Source: Octopus vulgaris (taxonomy: Eukaryota). Taken from it: a stretch of DNA of 64,000 bases. Within the stretch, counting starts at the first letter, position 1, and every line of letters starts with the position of its first letter. The position numbers and the translations under genes are program-made. The DNA lies in the NCBI GenBank assembly GCA_951406725.2, contig OX597825.1, forward strand, positions 18,600,001 to 18,664,000, in the 5' to 3' direction. This document shows positions 7,041 through 38,597 of the stretch, in pieces. The notes below the pieces were generated by a model that did no database searches, was not told the DNA's origin, and saw nothing but the letters and a program-made list of their open reading frames with translations.

Positions 7041-7271
7041 AAAAACGAAGAATTGCAAATAATGTATATGTTAGCCTAACAACGGAAGTGAGTATCTAGA
7101 CGTTGAATGTCACTTACAGAGTCAATAAGGTATCATCTATAGTTGATTGATAAAGATGATGGCCGTAGACTCTTGTAAATACCGAGGGATGAGTAAGTAG
7201 TCTCGCGCAATACGTGAGTGGTGTTCTGCAGTTTCTCGCTGAACAACATGCACAAATATTTTCTTTCTTTT

Positions 7272-7682
7272 TTCTTTATTGCCCACAAGAGGCAAACATA
7301 GAGGAGACAAACAAGGACAAACAAAGGGATTAAGTCGATTACATCGACCCCAGTGCGTAACTGGTATTTAATCCATCGACCCCCAAAGGATGAAAGGCAA
7401 AGTCGAACTCGGCGGAATTTGAACTCAGAACGTAACGGCAGACGAGATACCTATTTCTTTACTATCCACAAGGGGCTAAAAACAGAGAGGACAAACAAGG
7501 ACATACATAGGCATTAAGTCGATTACATCGACCCCAGTGCGTAACTGGTTCTTATTAAATCGACCCCGAAAGGATAAAAGGCAAAGTCGACCTCGGTGGA
7601 ATTTGAACTCAGAACGTAGCGGCAGACGAAATACCGCTAAGCATTTCGCCCGCTCACCGCCTTTCTGCCAGCTCACCGCCTT
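7272..7682 (-). mobile_element. SINE family B dimer (one head plus two tandem body units)
   Basis: Two consecutive body copies joined at GACGAGATAC/CTATTTCTTT (~7450); head at 7630-7682. Confidence 0.9.
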
Positions 7683-8724: not shown

Positions 8725-9319
8725 CGGTGGTCACCATTCTCTGTATGTATCAGTGGACGTTGTGTATCGCAAACAACTAAACATTTTCAGTATAGATTAA
8801 GGCATAATCTTGACAGCAATGATTAAACGTAACCTTTTCGTATGTACCAGGTTGATCTCCTGTAGCAATTGTTGGTCAATATATTCATGAACATTTAGGT
8901 TTTCGGAAAATATTAAAAAAGGCTGATGCGTTTGGTTGATTAGATATTTGAATATAATAATACACTGCAATGATTTAATCTTTTATTACTAGAGACTAAC
9001 TTCTCTAACCTTGCTCTATCTCTTGCCAGGATACTAAATGTGACTTTTACCCATCAATAAATTATATTATGCAAATGGAATACTTATTTTTTCCGAATGT
9101 ATGTAAGATATGCTATGTAGATTACGAAATGCACTTATCATAACGAATGGGGAATAGAATTTATATAATGAACATTGACGTATTTCAAATGAGGGATGAA
9201 GCAATACTTTAGTGTTTCATGGGAAAACGACAATTCGGTAATCGAAGTTGATTTAAATGGACCCAAATAATGTTTGACGCATATGTAACAAATACACTAA
9301 AAACATATATCATTCTATT

Positions 9320-9724
9320 GTTGTATTTTGGAATGGTCATTTTGCCAGTTTAGCCAATAAAAACACACGCACTATATATTTGGTGTTATTTTGCTTCAGC
9401 GTTTTTTTATTTTTTTTACATTAATCTTAATCTTATTTCGGCCAGAGTTCTTTCGTCACATTCCTGTGACCTCATCAGTGGTCCTTTGCTTTTTTCTTTC
9501 GTATTTGTGTGTCTCTCCTTACTAACGGTCAGCCATTTTGTATTTTGTATTCCTATTGTATGTGTATTCATTTGCGCATGCGTATACCTCTATGTGTGTA
9601 TCTATGTTTAGTTAGTGTGTGTGTGGGGGGGGGGAAGTGCCTGTAATATTTGTATCTCCTGTTTATATACGTTCGTATAATTTGTTTTTGTTTTTGTTTA
9701 TTTTTAAACAAATATATAAACGTA
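9320..9724 (-). mobile_element. ~405-bp ORF-less insertion carrying a hammerhead motif, flanked by a 15-bp direct repeat
   Basis: ATATATCATTCTATT at 9305-9319 and 9725-9739 (putative target-site duplication). Confidence 0.75.
9440..9484 (-). ncRNA. Minimal type I hammerhead ribozyme motif, intact catalytic core
   Basis: Minus strand GGACCA-CTGATGA-G-GTCAC-AGGAAT-GTGAC-GAAA-GAAC-TC-TGGCC: stem I CCA/TGG (+GG/CC), perfect 5-bp stem II, 2-bp stem III, CUC site. Confidence 0.8.
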
Positions 9725-11522
9725 ATATATCATTCTATTATACCGGATAACAGTGGTAACGTGAGTAAATGCAGATTTGAATAAATACAAACTTGCTTCC
9801 AACTTTTTTTCTACGTTGAGTAACCGATTAGCGCTACCAGCCATCGTGTCATAATGGGAACATCGTAAGAGAGACAGTCTCTCGCGTCAGCTCACAGCGC
9901 AATCTTGGATGGTTTCTATGGCTGAAGAGATGATAACTTCTCCGAAATACACGCACTTTAAAGCCTAGTCAGATCGTACTGCGCGTTGATGGGGTATACT
10001 TACATCCATTTGTCAACAGCATGCAATCTTCTCCATGTCAAATCACAGTGAAACGCTTTCTAACGGTTCGGATATGTGTCAAACACATCTGAACAGGTAT
10101 CAAATTAAATTATCATTCTATTAATACTAAATGGCACAACATCAGAAGGTAGTAAACAGTTCCGTCAGGTTACACTGCTTAAACTTAGTTGTTACAAATA
10201 CAAATCGAGTATTATTATTATCATTACAAATCTACTCGGTTTAAATTGTTTGTAATATAAGCTGCCTTGTAATATATGATCGAAAAATAGTATTTGGCAT
10301 TTAAAGTCACGATCTGTTGACTTTTCGCTTACAAAGGAAGTGACGTCATATAGCTGTAGAGTTCAGCACTAAATGATAGAACTTCCAGGGAATAGAAATA
10401 ATTCGAACGTAGGTTGATCGTGTGTCTCCTGGAAAAAGAAAACTGAATGATCTTGATAGTTTAGTCATGTAGAAATAAGTTTTATTTTAAAATTTGTGTT
10501 TCTACGTTTCAATCTTAGACGTACTGTCATTTTAGAAATCTTTTCAAAAAATTTTAGGAATGTGATTTTTTGTTATTTGTTTGTTATAAATCCTGACTTT
10601 ATTTTCCTCTTCCATTTGGTTCGTAGGGTTCCAGGCCCGGAAACAACTTTCTTACGCTATCATCTAAATCATTAGTTGCGAGAATGATGATAAGTTTAAT
10701 ACGAAATCGATTCCCCTTTTTTTTATGCGTATCTTAATGCATTGTATATACTTGATGTATACTTGATGCATTTTCTCATAAAAGAACCGGGATATTCAAG
10801 GATTCTTTACGTTGATAAATTAAGGAGATGAGATATTGAATATGTAGGAACGCAATGTTTTTATTTTCTTTAATGAAGGAAATTCACGATGAAAAAAAGC
10901 TCTTATCTCGTTTTAAGAGATCATTAAGTATTTGAAGCAAGTAAACTAGAAAGAAGTGAAATAAATGAATGGAAACCTAATGTATGAAAACAAGACAGTT
11001 TTCAATATGAACCCCTCAGGTATCGGAGGGAAAGGAAATATTGACGATAATTTTTCTATGAAACTCATACGATATTTCTTCATATTTGAAATGTAAAAAA
11101 ATCGCTTGAGTTGTTTTTTTTTTATGAGTCACTTTAGGCCGTCTTTATTTGATTAATGGTATTTAATGAAATATTTGGCGTTGAGCTGAGAAAGTGCTCT
11201 TGGCGACCATTTACAATTTTTTAGTCCTTTGCATATTGTATCTTAGACATTTCTTTTATAAACATTAAAATAGAATGATTATAAACTTCATTTCCTTAAA
11301 GGGAATTGTAGTTCGTATGTATAGGTCACAGCAAGAAAACATAGTTAATATTCTATATGTGTCAACTGAAACTGAACGTAATAATACATGCAAGAAATAA
11401 GTGCACGATTTTCAATTGCTGGTCTGTAACGCCAAAATATTCGACCACAGAGCAATTATAGAAGTTCTGATTTCAGTCAACATCATATCAATATACTGGC
11501 ATTTTACTACGTTAAGTCTATT

Positions 11523-21803: not shown

Positions 21804-23462
21804 CTATGTTTGACTTTTGCTTTATATTTGTACAAGTTGGCTCCAAGTCTCACCCAGAGACCTCAAGAGACAACAGGGTTGGAAGTTCATGTTGTTGTTA
21901 TGCCTAGTGTGCCATATATTTGGGGGTGGGGATGTTGTACTAATGAATGTCTAAAAATAAAAAAAAAAAAAAAGGTTTTTTTTTTTTTTGTTTTTTTTTT
22001 AAACCGAAAATTATGTTTGTTTTAAACCTTGAGATTACATAGAGAGTATTTTGCGTAGGATATGAGCAGTTCCCATGAGCACTATCTTTTGAACTTCTGC
22101 CATTTTTGGGTTTCCTGGTATCTGAGTTAGGTAGCTATCAGCCCCTTTTGCTATCATTCCCAGGGCACCTATGACAACAGGTATTGTTTTAGTCTTCAGC
22201 TTCCACATTTTGCTGATTTCTATTTCAAGATCTTTATATTTGCTCAGTTTTTGGTAGGTCTTGACAGATACGTTTATATCGATTGGGACAGTCATATCAA
22301 TGAGGAGGCATGTTCTTTGTTTGAAGTTTTTCAATATGATGTCTGGCCTATTTGCATCTATCTTCCTGTCAGTTTGAATGGTGAAGTTTCAGAGGAGTGA
22401 GATGTGGTCATTTTCAAGCACTGGGGGTGGTTTGTGTTCCCACCAGTTTTTTTCATGGGGCAAATCCAGGTTTTTACAGATTACCCAGTGAATATATTGT
22501 GCAGCTCTATCGTGCCTGTTGAGATACTCTGTAGGCGCTAGAAGACTGCACTTGGAGACCACATGGTCAATGGTTTCATTTTGTTGCTTGCATACACGAC
22601 ACGTTGGACTGCTTCTGATCTTTAATATGTTGGCCTGGTAGTTTCTTGTTGGTAGGCATTGATCTTGAGCTGCTATGATAAACCCCTCTGTTTCAGATTT
22701 TAAGCCAGGGGCCATTAGCCATTGATGGGTCAGGGCTTTGTCGATATCTGCATTATTCGCTCTCTTTGGGTATTTGCCATAGAGAGGTTTTTCTTGCCAT
22801 TTATTATTCAGAATATCTAAGGCCGCAGTTTTGGCACGGGTTTTCATGCGCCTAGCTTTTTCTGTGCTTGTTTCTTGTATATCTATCTCCGAAATTGGTT
22901 GTATTCGGAATTCACTTAGATATTCCTTTGCCTGTTTTGTGACTGAGTATGATGCTTTCTTGTTTTCATGTTTTGAGACAAGTTTTAGCATCCAGTCCTC
23001 AGAGTTTTTCAGGTAGGTGTCTAGGCCAATTGTAGCAATCTTCATTGTTATTGCCAGTTGCAAAAGACCACGGCCTCCTCTTTTCTTGGCAGATAGAGTC
23101 GTTCTGTATCTGCCTTAGGGTGGTGCATTCTATGCATTGTCAACAGTTTCCTTATTTTTCTGTCGAGCTGACATATTTCAGTAATTGACCAGTTAACAAT
23201 ATTGAAACTGTAAGTCACGACTGGTATAGCTAATGCATTGATTGCTTCGATCCTGTTTCTTGCATTCAGCTCTGTCTTGAGTATTGCTCTCACTCTTCGA
23301 TAGCATTCTCTCCTGATCCTTTCCTTCATCTCTGAATGCCTTATTCCGTTCCCTTCAATTATCCCTAGGTACTTGTAGCTCTCCGCTGGGTCTAGTTCTT
23401 TTATGACATTCTGTTGGTCAAGGTTAACGTTAGATGTTTCTGTCATTTTTCCTTTGATAAAG

Positions 23463-24150: not shown

Positions 24151-24469
24151 AATGCTGATACTTCCAAGTGCGTCAATTACGATTCTTATCACGTCTGCGT
24201 ACCTCACTCAACACAACCTTCGTATTTTCCACTTCAGATTGTCATAGATGACTATTTTCTCTTTTTTCTCTTTGACCCAGTGGTCACCGTGATGTTATGT
24301 CAATTATCATGCATGTTCTTACAATTTTTATTCACTCCCAAAAATGTCCGGTTTCAGAAAGTTTTCTGAGGCGTTGTACTGAATCAATGTGTCTCACAGG
24401 ATTTTGCAATTCTCATTCTCGTTGATTCCTTCTGCAGTTTTCTCATACCATGTCTTTGAACTTTGTAGG

Positions 24470-25283
24470 CAGTGACTCTGGGAGACGACGAGAACGAACT
24501 GGTTTTTCTGATCCGAATAATTCCCAGATATACCTGACCTGCCAATGTTACCAGGGAGCGTTACCGGTTCAAGATAAACCCTACAGGCACGGATGTGCTC
24601 ACAGACGCACTTGTTCGAGGTGCGCGCCGAGTGACGAAACCGTTCTGCATGTCCCCGTTCAGTGTCCGGGTATTGCTGACTTGTGAGATTATTTTGAACA
24701 GCTGCTGTCTTCTATTGGAAGGATCCGGTTGATGGCCGAGTCTGCAGTGATGATTTCACCGCCACCTTCTCTCAATCGGGGAGGGAAGGCAGTTTTCCTT
24801 TGCCTGGTGGCTGTGGCGGAAGCGGTTGTTTGGTGGACGAGGCTGAAAGGCATGAGGACAGATACATTCCGCTTTGGTAGAGCTCGCATTGACGTTTTCA
24901 AGTTTCACTTAAAAAGGAAATTAAGAGTGGAGAGAAGTGCTCTTCTCGAGTGAGTTTATTGAAAGGTGGGTGAAAGTTACGAAAATGGTAAGAGTGGATG
25001 GTACCTCTTTAAGCGCATACCTTTGAATCGGAGAGAAGGAATTGGAGAGGGCATTTGCTACTGGGGTTTCAGGGAAATCTCGGAGAATGTGGTTCCTCGA
25101 TTATCCCTAGAGACGTCCCTGAATCAACAGGGCCACATTTCTATCATTCCTCCCTTTATTTCTACCTTTGTACGCTATGCATGTGTCCCTCCTTTTCCAG
25201 TGTATACGTATTTTTTATTTAATTTTCTTTACCATTTCATTATTACGTTTAAACCCCTACACTTTACGTCTGTCTCTTTCTAA
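24470..25283 (+). mobile_element. L1/Tx1-like ORF2 C-terminal fragment with 3' UTR, pseudogenised
   Basis: GALPVQDKPYRHG...CSRCAPSDETVLHVPVQCP (zf-RVT-like CxxC..H..C), then AVVWWTR; stops present. Confidence 0.7.
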
Positions 25284-33584: not shown

Positions 33585-34184
33585 AAGGCAGCGACCTGGC
33601 AAAAACGGTAGCACGCCGGGCGAAATGTGCAGCCATATTTCGTCTGCCATTACATTCTGAGTTCAAATTCCGCCGAGGTCGACTTTGCCTTTCATCCTTT
33701 CGAGATCAATTAAATAAGTACCAGTTGCGCACTGGTGTCGATATAATCGACTTAATCCGTTTGTCTGACCTTGATTGCCCTCTTTCTGTTTAGCCCCTTG
33801 TGGGTAATAAAGAAATAGGTATTTCGTCTGCCGCTACGTTCTGAGTTCTAATTCCGCCGAGGTCGACTTTACCTTTCAACCTTTCGGGGTCGATTAAATA
33901 AGTACCAGTTATGCACTGGGGTCGATATAATCGACTTAATCTGTTTGTCTATCCTTGTTTGTCCTCTTTGTGTTTAGCTCCTAATGGGCAGTAAAGAAAT
34001 AGGTATCTCGTCTGCCGTTACGTTCTGAGTTCAAATTCCGCCGAGGTCGACTTTACCTTTCATCCTTTCGGGGTCGATTAAATAAGTACCAGTTATGCAC
34101 TGGGGTCGATATAATCGACTTAATCCGTCTGTCTGTCCTTGTTTGTCCTCTCTGTGTTTAGCCCCTTGTGGGTAGTAAAAAAAT
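33585..34184 (+). mobile_element. SINE family B trimer (one head plus three 184-bp units) with 18-bp target-site duplication
   Basis: Equivalent unit positions at 33637, 33821 and 34005; AGGTAAATGATTAGA(C/T)AG at 33567-33584 and 34185-34202. Confidence 0.93.
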
Positions 34185-34864
34185 AGGTAAATGATTAGAT
34201 AGGTAGAAGTCATCTGCGATAAGAATTTAGTATTCGAATGACATCATACTATTTATTTTCCCATTATTCGACCCCTTGATGATATAAAACTACCAAGTTA
34301 CTACGTTACAGCTGTTACAGAACACAATCCTAAACGATATTTGTTCGTATCTCACCAGACACGAAACATCTGCAGCATCCTAATATCATACACCAGTTGC
34401 AGAAAACCCCACGCTCTTTCTCCATTCGTATAAGTTCCAATCATATCGCAAATAAAATGAAAAAAATGGCTTCTAAAATATGGGTTGCGTGCAAGCAGTT
34501 TCTGCTATATAACACTTTACTACGTCTGTCTTTCATTTCTTTGATAGTGGTAGCGCGTTTCAATATACGCAGGAGTTCCTATAGGTCTCTTGCACAGTAT
34601 GACATTAAAATTATATTAATTAAGTTGACGACACTGGAGATAGAGTCTGTTTTAGGTCTTCTTCTATTTCCAATTATTCTGTATTGTTTATTTATGGTTT
34701 TTTTTTTTGAAATTTTACTCATTTATTTGCTTCGATAATTAAACTCTGAAGTTATGCTGATTCAGGAGAAACCCAGTAACAAAAAATAAAATATATATAT
34801 ATATATTTATCATAGCTAGCCAAGTCAAATAGAAATCCGTCTGACGAAAGAATCAAAAATACAC

Positions 34865-37609: not shown

Positions 37610-38597
37610 CCCGGAATTAATTTTTTTCCGATCAAAAGGTTATCCATTTCTGGAAGAAGTGGTAGTCAGTGGGGGCAAGATCAGGTGAGTATGGTGGATG
37701 ATGGAGAACTTCCAACTACAACCCCTGTAGTTTCGCCAATGTTATTTTTGCGATGTGTGGTCTGGCGTTGTCTTGCAATAAAATAGAAGTGGATCTGTTG
37801 ACTAATCTTTTGTAAGTTTCTGCATTTGGCTGCATTGTACTTCTGCCGCGATTGATGAGCCAGGTTCAATGAAATCATAACGGATCACATCTGCGCCAGA
37901 CCGCCAAACACACGCCATCATTTCTTTTGATGAATTTTGCTTTTTGGCCTGTGTTTTGGTGGCTCGCCTTTGTCCAACCATTATTCTGAATGTTCGCGAT
38001 TGTTGTATTTGATCCATTTCTCATCACATGTTACACTGCGATTCAAAAATGATTCATTCTTGTGATGAGAAAATAGCATTATGCAGGCTTCCAAACGTTG
38101 CTGTTTCTGATTTTCATTGAGTTCATGTGGAACACACTTATCTAAATTTTTCACTTTACCGATAATTTACGGGCACTTTGGGATGGATCTGACTCGACGT
38201 TGGCTTTCAGTTCATCATTATCCACCATTGTTTCTGATCGACTGCGTTGCTCACTTGTGAGGTCAAAGTGACCAGAATGAATTTTTTCAAACCATTTTGA
38301 TACTGGCTGCTGTGTAATAACATTAGAATGAAATGCTCTGTTAATATTCCGAGGTGTCAGTGATGCTGTACTTCCAAGAAAGAAGTCATATTTCGAAACT
38401 ATACGAATTTCCGAATTATAAAAAAAAAATTATAAATATTTTATAAAGCGCAAAATGAGTTAGAATAAAGAAATAGATGTGTCAGCTTTCTAACAAATAA
38501 TTAAGATTGTAAAATATAATAATAGCGCAAAATATGAATAGCTGCCAAGGTTTACCATATACCTTGCTACAAATTTCATACTTAACGACCTAAAATA
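37610..38597 (-). mobile_element. Decayed mariner (DD34D) transposon
   Basis: Minus-strand motifs CVPHEL (WVPHEL-like), VTCDEKW and HPPYSPDLAPTDYHFF (37653-37700); TIR-like TTAGGTCGTTAAGTATGAAAT near 38572-38593; broken frame. Confidence 0.92.

Follow-up and report, generated by a model that had tools for sequence, protein, structure and literature searches.

A dead Penelope-like element end with a minimal hammerhead motif and an inverted tail piece in Octopus vulgaris

The window, by which we mean the whole 64,000-nt stretch of Octopus vulgaris DNA that was analysed (assembly GCA_951406725.2, contig OX597825.1, positions 18,600,001 to 18,664,000, forward strand), carries a 405-bp insertion. 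We read this insertion with high confidence as the 5'-truncated 3' end of an abundant EN+ Penelope-like element (PLE), joined to an inverted 19-nt piece of the tail. Probably the RT/GIY-YIG protein of the parent produced both parts in a single event of target-primed reverse transcription. It is one among thousands of dead PLE ends, and its hammerhead is the ordinary motif that such PLEs carry, moved along as part of the pLTR.

Structure of the insertion

The insertion is bounded by ATATATCATTCTATT, a perfect direct repeat present at 9305-9319 and again at 9725-9739 (plus strand) with 405 bp in between. An earlier note on this DNA, made from the letters alone, had taken this 15-bp repeat for a target-site duplication, and we re-found both copies exact. 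Perfect 15-mers recurring 300-615 bp apart number 102 in the window, and among the first 40 that we viewed one other pair lay outside microsatellite arrays. The left flank is single-copy in the genome, so it has no paralogous empty site. The last 4 nt of the left copy of the duplication are also the next 4 nt of the PLE family, possibly a trace of priming microhomology.

The same note described a discrete, ORF-less element of 405 bp. The boundaries and the length are real, but the insertion is not one unit. Its main arm (9320-9706, minus strand) is the 5'-truncated 3' UTR and pLTR of a PLE and stops at the family's 'short' 3' end, and the 19 nt at 9706-9724 (plus strand) come, inverted, from the 'long' 3' end, or tail, of the family and form a second, oppositely primed arm. 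There is indeed no long ORF, but the main arm closes with the seven codons (MTIPKYN) that open the parent's RT/GIY-YIG ORF (9320-9340, minus strand, ATG at 9340), placed by the pLTR-ORF junction in two loci with the full layout (L057 and L060). The sequence at 9706-9724 agrees with the terminal 19 nt of the long end, exactly in 7/34 tails and with two mismatches or fewer in 24/34, and this tail motif has no second match anywhere in the 64-kb window. Because of the exact matches to family tails, we rejected a 33-bp degenerate duplication (9287-9319 and 9707-9739, 79%) in place of the 15-bp duplication plus tail.

The parent Penelope-like element

To the 2.8-Gb genome the insert gave 2,874 first-look candidates, and the 40 that were scored comprise the window itself and copies 91-94% identical, aligned over about insert positions 1-387. 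A 29-mer of the pLTR had 4,890 exact genome matches (control, 0). The copies have in common one sharp 3' end in the hammerhead sense, which corresponds to window 9320. At the opposite side, 20 of the 29 best other copies run 5' beyond the end of the window copy, six of them with 0.8-1.3 kb of shared sequence, and several longer copies reach RT and GIY-YIG coding sequence upstream. The insert was rightly called pLTR-like; the accompanying suggestion of a retrozyme-like unit that moved on its own is not supported, given these longer copies. At the BLAST ends of the 30 best matches we found no convincing duplication besides the window's own, because most copies extend further or lie in microsatellites.

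The parent ORF encodes RT, then a CX4CX2C linker, then a GIY-YIG endonuclease with CCHH-type residues; by eye, two Cys lie between the VY and YVG motifs and His residues downstream in one copy (L036) and the homologues. Pfam, run on one 468-aa frame, returned RVT_1 (E 4e-4) and GIY-YIG (E 6e-4), both below gathering cut-offs. A search of longer proteins examined 2,724 candidates and yielded 36 relatives. The best one covers 95% of the query at 45% identity (E 1e-115), and eight of the 36 could be aligned through RT, linker and endonuclease; none of the 36 was a labelled PLE protein. When loci were chosen by their RT region, 19/20 had a pLTR match, and in 8 a piece of pLTR lay inverted no more than 1.5 kb upstream. 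The full layout, with an inverted 3' copy, a pLTR with hammerhead, the ATG and the ORF, is seen in L057 and L060, where the pLTR stands both before the ORF in direct orientation and at the 3' end, the 3' pLTR being interrupted in both. With the hammerhead lying in the pLTR and with motifs and homologues clear where Pfam is sub-threshold, we identify the insert from its sequence as the 3' end (pLTR) of a C-terminal EN+ PLE with thousands of copies.

Several observations were made in passing. In two copies (L043, L052) the RT is longer by ~65-70 residues between motifs 3 and 4; the added stretch includes a conserved CPxR (alignment columns 610-760) and is common to the eight homologues. Canonical PLEs lack an insertion of this kind according to PMC8557442, so the lineage may be an unnamed one. 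A second, different PLE lies in inverted arrangement at L031 (contig C12, about 45.760-45.763 Mb), with RT and a long CGRPNCRIC-type linker that is Neptune-like by eye; it and a Tc1-like transposase are within 6 kb of a copy of the window's PLE family. Two pairs of near-identical insertions (L076/L077 and L109/L110) share flanks about 19-22 kb apart on contig C1 and are either local duplications or uncollapsed haplotypes.

A retrozyme was another identity to be weighed. Several traits of the insert would suit a monomer of a non-LTR retrozyme, which self-cleaves, circularises and reinserts: its hammerhead is of type I, it has a target-site duplication but lacks a long ORF, and its length is close to that of retrozymes (parts of PMC7761336). 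We nevertheless regard this origin as very improbable. The insert is not independent of a coding element, and in place of the tandem copies that the earlier note proposed to look for, the genome-wide search found a dispersed high-copy repeat. Across 120 overlapping loci no head-to-tail arrays of monomers were seen, apart from a single same-strand pair, 275 nt apart, that came up three times. The ends of the copies are fixed at PLE start sites and are not permuted around a circle, and retrozymes do not carry an inverted piece of tail. Further, only 1 of 30 copies, in a sample chosen by a downstream motif, starts within 3 nt of the predicted cut site, so the cut RNA would not be the usual template.

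The hammerhead motif

The motif at 9440-9484 (minus strand) is a minimal type I hammerhead in what we call the A9 form. Stem I is formed by GG(A)CCA (9484-9479) and UGGCC (9444-9440), with 5 bp and one bulge, and is followed by the core CUGAUGA (9478-9472), with an extra G at 9471 after A9. Stem II (9470-9465 with 9460-9455) leads into GAAA (9454-9451), AGAACU and C17 at 9445. Stem II had been counted as 5 bp; it has 6, with pair probabilities of 0.93-0.99 when the whole insert is folded. The earlier reading that all hammerhead core nucleotides are present on the minus strand was confirmed, as every position of the consensus (C3 U4 G5 A6 N7 G8 A9, G12 A13 A14, A15.1-U16.1, H17; the relevant section of PMC3088659) is occupied correctly, and the predicted cut after CUC, between 9445 and 9444, likewise falls where it had been placed.

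Rfam reported no hammerhead on the motif, either with its gathering threshold or with E relaxed to 10, the folding z-scores are weak (-1.2 to -1.9), and a loose hammerhead pattern matches the window 8 times against a shuffle mean of 4.6, not above chance. Since Rfam is silent and the loose pattern is within chance, the assignment rests on conservation of the motif across the PLE family, which supports the hammerhead call.

Stem III of the window copy is not stable in either form. As a monomer it has 2 bp closing a 2-nt loop, and in a dimer, by a nearest-neighbour estimate only, AGAACU would give a helix of +1.4 kcal/mol against -4.8 for AGUACU. AGAACT is, literally, one change from the palindrome AGTACT, as had been pointed out, but this does not point to decay: genome-wide there are 7 occurrences of the palindrome version, whereas AGAACT follows an intact stem II in 42/60 sampled copies. 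AGAACT is the normal stem III of this PLE family and not a decayed palindrome. A stem too weak as a monomer and non-palindromic for a dimer also speaks against the retrozyme. The claim that this was the best candidate here for an active ribozyme found no support, and we predict that the window hammerhead, alone as a monomer, would cleave weakly or not at all. Passages of PMC4209133 report a single minimal PLE hammerhead without cleavage and dimers that cleave little. An Anolis PLE hammerhead does cleave once protein is added (a section of PMC11167929), so the motif may yet be active in vivo.

Two 3' ends and the route of insertion

We classified the 3' ends of the family in 60 loci, taking for each of two 17-mers its first 30 matches. 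The short end was found in 34 and the long end, about 58 nt further on, in 26. With 10 second arms or duplicates dropped, 50 insertions and the window copy gave a set of 51. Both ends are visible in 20 of these and are always one short and one long: 13 have a short main arm with a long inverted arm (the window copy included; two of the calls, L066 and L074, may reflect chance or neighbouring matches), 7 have the reverse, and none has two alike. Another 25/51 have no inverted end within 1.5 kb, and 6/51 have no end motif. All 20 two-ended insertions show an inverted 5'-truncated copy and a one-sided tail, as PLEs do. The targets are mostly (TA)n or (AAT)n, 13/20 two-ended insertions lying in microsatellites; at the seven others, exact duplications of 15 bp (the window copy), 10 bp and 9 bp were seen at three sites and an exact duplication was not found at four.

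Two published descriptions bear on this pattern. PLE structure includes tandem and inverted pLTRs and a tail at one end only (parts of 10.1101/2021.04.23.441226), and in the Anolis element two RT start sites define the tail, both strands are nicked and the hammerhead is unnecessary in vitro (sections of PMC11167929). From these passages we infer, by analogy, a twin-priming account of the window insertion. The endonuclease would cut an AT-rich site once on each strand, with 15 nt between the two nicks. The first of these would prime cDNA at the 'short' RNA start site, seven codons into the ORF, from which 386 nt would be copied, and the other would prime at the 'long' start site, about 58 nt further 3', with 19 nt copied. 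The two cDNAs would then be joined head to head, repair would create the 15-bp duplication, and the hammerhead would be carried along within the pLTR.

The 5' ends of the copies are relevant to a further possibility, that the insert represents a non-autonomous mini-element: an internal promoter would yield a short RNA holding just the pLTR, and the PLE protein would move it in trans. The 5' ends do gather at a family position matching window 9538-9555 (seen in loci L064-L123 and L125-L154). In 17/60 arms they cluster 60-77 nt upstream of the core, some of these being paired arms or duplicates, and in 6/30 copies of the downstream-motif sample, which overlaps the first, they fall at window 9539-9545. 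This cluster may mark where a short pLTR transcript begins, or where RT stops, and a short pLTR RNA may also be used as template in this PLE family. It has been proposed, in part of 10.64898/2026.07.22.740005, that animal retrozymes are pLTR-derived. The window arm itself, however, begins 228 nt before the core, which is about 160 nt beyond the cluster, and stops in an A-rich run; the 5' ends of the copies spread to >900 nt, and 20/29 of the best copies extend further 5'. We consider it unlikely for the window copy, for which a truncated product of the full-length PLE remains our reading.

Age of the insertion and its surroundings

Over 143 nt, the window copy differs on average by 8.1% from 26 copies of the A9 form and by 5.8% from 23 copies of a second form, C9, described below. 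In other sequencing runs, the right junction is bridged by contigs of X2, X8 and X1, the last of which is possibly the source of the assembly itself. We count this junction alone, because the contigs that come in from the left flank, in five runs, cover just 26 letters of the insert, below the 31-letter bridging threshold, and give a hint only. Run X8 (organism D) shows 18 differences in about 540 flank letters. Since the same site is occupied in a run with ~3% flank difference, the sequences place the insertion before a split of about 3%. The window copy belongs to an older wave of the family. No empty allele (9319 joined to 9740) was found in contigs of X2, X4, X5, X8, X7 and X1 (DNA or unlabelled), which show presence and not absence; with none seen in these six runs, the duplication is unproved against a pre-insertion site. 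None of the runs listed as containing the sequence is recorded as RNA; two runs guessed to be RNA cover the repeat only, in 11/30 bins, and carry no weight either way. Over window 9000-10000, run X7 is labelled organism A but has the same flank alleles as X4 (organism B) and X8 (organism D), so these labels may represent a species complex.

An old insertion at a site shared with diverged samples, with all core positions intact where stem II or GAAA is disrupted in 12/30 A9 copies of the sample, might be thought to have been retained to cleave, in cis, a host transcript of the minus strand. Such a role is, in our estimate, highly improbable. An intact 45-nt motif is common at this age, 12/30 A9 copies having an intact core to C17, and a lone minimal hammerhead is not expected to cut (the same part of PMC4209133). 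Nor is there a host exon to act on in the frames searched: Pfam found none in 78 of the window's 132 non-repetitive frames, just transposon pieces. The window copy, without coding capacity, is likely an inert old passenger.

Other repeats were noted in the window. LINE-type fragments at 22392-23114 (minus strand) and 24426-24683 (plus strand), in opposite orientations, match zf-RVT below cut-off (E 1e-5 and 2e-4), and a broken mariner (Mos1-like) transposase at 37805-38429 (minus strand) matches HTH_48 and Transposase_1 above cut-off. Two inverted matches (7267-7652 and 33617-34186; about 365 nt, 85-86% identity) are probably copies of a short interspersed repeat.

Two subfamilies that differ at position 9

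The family exists in two forms that differ in the hammerhead core. Exact 19-mers of the core occur 796 times in the A9 form, which is the window's, and 3,516 times in the C9 form (controls, 0), and rough estimates corrected for decay are about 2,200 and 4,800 copies, respectively. Positions 9 and 17 match window 9472 and 9445, and C9 was seen in L064-L093, L057 and L060. The mean pairwise difference is 3.5% for C9 (23 copies) and 10.5% for A9 (26 copies). Arm-to-arm substitutions are 0-2.4% in 7/9 C9 insertions (10-12% in the other two) and 3.1-14.4% in 11/11 A9 insertions. The lower pairwise and mostly lower arm-to-arm differences indicate that the C9 copies are younger. In a midpoint-rooted tree of 235 nt, with no tested support, 22/23 C9 copies are grouped inside A9, together with two A9 copies. 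U17 is also present in 11/30 C9 loci; a 34-mer ending in U17 has 1,400 matches, and among the first 100 listed 98 are C9.

G12 is the general base of the hammerhead. A C at position 9 could pair with G12, which would be expected to hinder catalysis, and we predict that the C9 form has lost cleavage activity. A9 belongs to the consensus core, and in the section of PMC3088659 that concerns it any core change disqualified a hit while U17 was permitted. We found no activity measurement for A9C in the literature searched. The role of the hammerhead in EN-bearing PLEs has been called unclear (passages in 10.1101/2021.04.23.441226, PMC8557442 and PMC7761336). The youngest and largest wave swapped A9 for C, with U17 in addition in ~1,400 copies, yet it out-amplified the lineage with the intact core. 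We raise, as a tentative idea that we do not favour at present, that cleavage is dispensable for the spread of these PLEs in vivo and the fold is kept for another role.

Comparison with known elements

Penelope elements are already reported to be abundant in coleoid genomes (in part of PMC8967140). In the literature searched, with Repbase, Dfam and bioRxiv supplements outside its reach, we found no description of this PLE family or of octopus retrozymes. According to the sections of Craig et al. 2021 (PMC8557442) used here, the family shares with the canonical C-terminal EN+ PLEs (Penelope/Poseidon, Neptune, Nematis) an RT followed by GIY-YIG, a pLTR with hammerhead, strong 5' truncation, an inverted 5' copy, a one-sided tail and a (TA)n preference; its tail is about 58 nt, theirs 30-40. 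Against the Penelope row of their Fig. S1, the octopus RT has, by eye, the ~65-70 extra residues between motifs 3 and 4. A CX2-5CxxC linker between RT and EN defines Neptune and Nematis in the same source, and the octopus family has CX4CX2C there, most like the compact linker of the Nematis rows (Fig. S2) by eye. The linker sequence points to Neptune or Nematis as candidate clades. The Octopus Naiad and Hydra families of PMC8557442 were considered and set aside as different elements; five RT motifs had 0 matches in the portion of the supplement text seen.

Another relative is Poseidon of Anolis carolinensis, PAc, which in the passages of Frangieh et al. 2024 (PMC11167929) starts reverse transcription at two sites a short way into the ORF, cuts both strands of AT-rich DNA and carries a hammerhead in the pLTR, all shared with the octopus family. 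In the octopus family the ORF is entered by about 21 nt at one start site and 80 nt at the other. The octopus hammerhead is about 100 nt upstream of the ATG, whereas the PAc ORF begins in stem II, and Poseidon, in the parts covered, is without the linker zinc finger that the octopus family has.

The motif itself resembles the minimal PLE hammerheads of Cervera and de la Pena 2014 (as given in part of PMC4209133) in being of type I with a long stem II, a short stem I, an extra base after position 9, G10.1-C11.1 and a rudimentary stem III, and in occurring mostly as single dispersed motifs from truncated PLEs. It departs from them in a non-palindromic loop 3 (AA) and, in the majority subfamily and not the window copy, in the C at position 9. 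With metazoan non-LTR retrozymes (sections of PMC7761336 and 10.64898/2026.07.22.740005) the insert shares a type I hammerhead, a non-coding nature and probable ties to PLEs; these retrozymes are 150-300 bp tandem repeats that yield circular RNAs, whereas the insert is the dispersed, truncated end of an autonomous element.

Because it lies in unique DNA, where the duplication is readable, and its second arm is just 19 nt, the window insertion illustrates the mechanism with two start sites cleanly. Within one family, the A9 and the C9/U17 subfamilies offer a direct pairwise test of whether PLEs need cleavage in vivo. If C9 forms fail to cleave even as dimers with protein, the in vitro result on the lizard element would gain in vivo evolutionary support.
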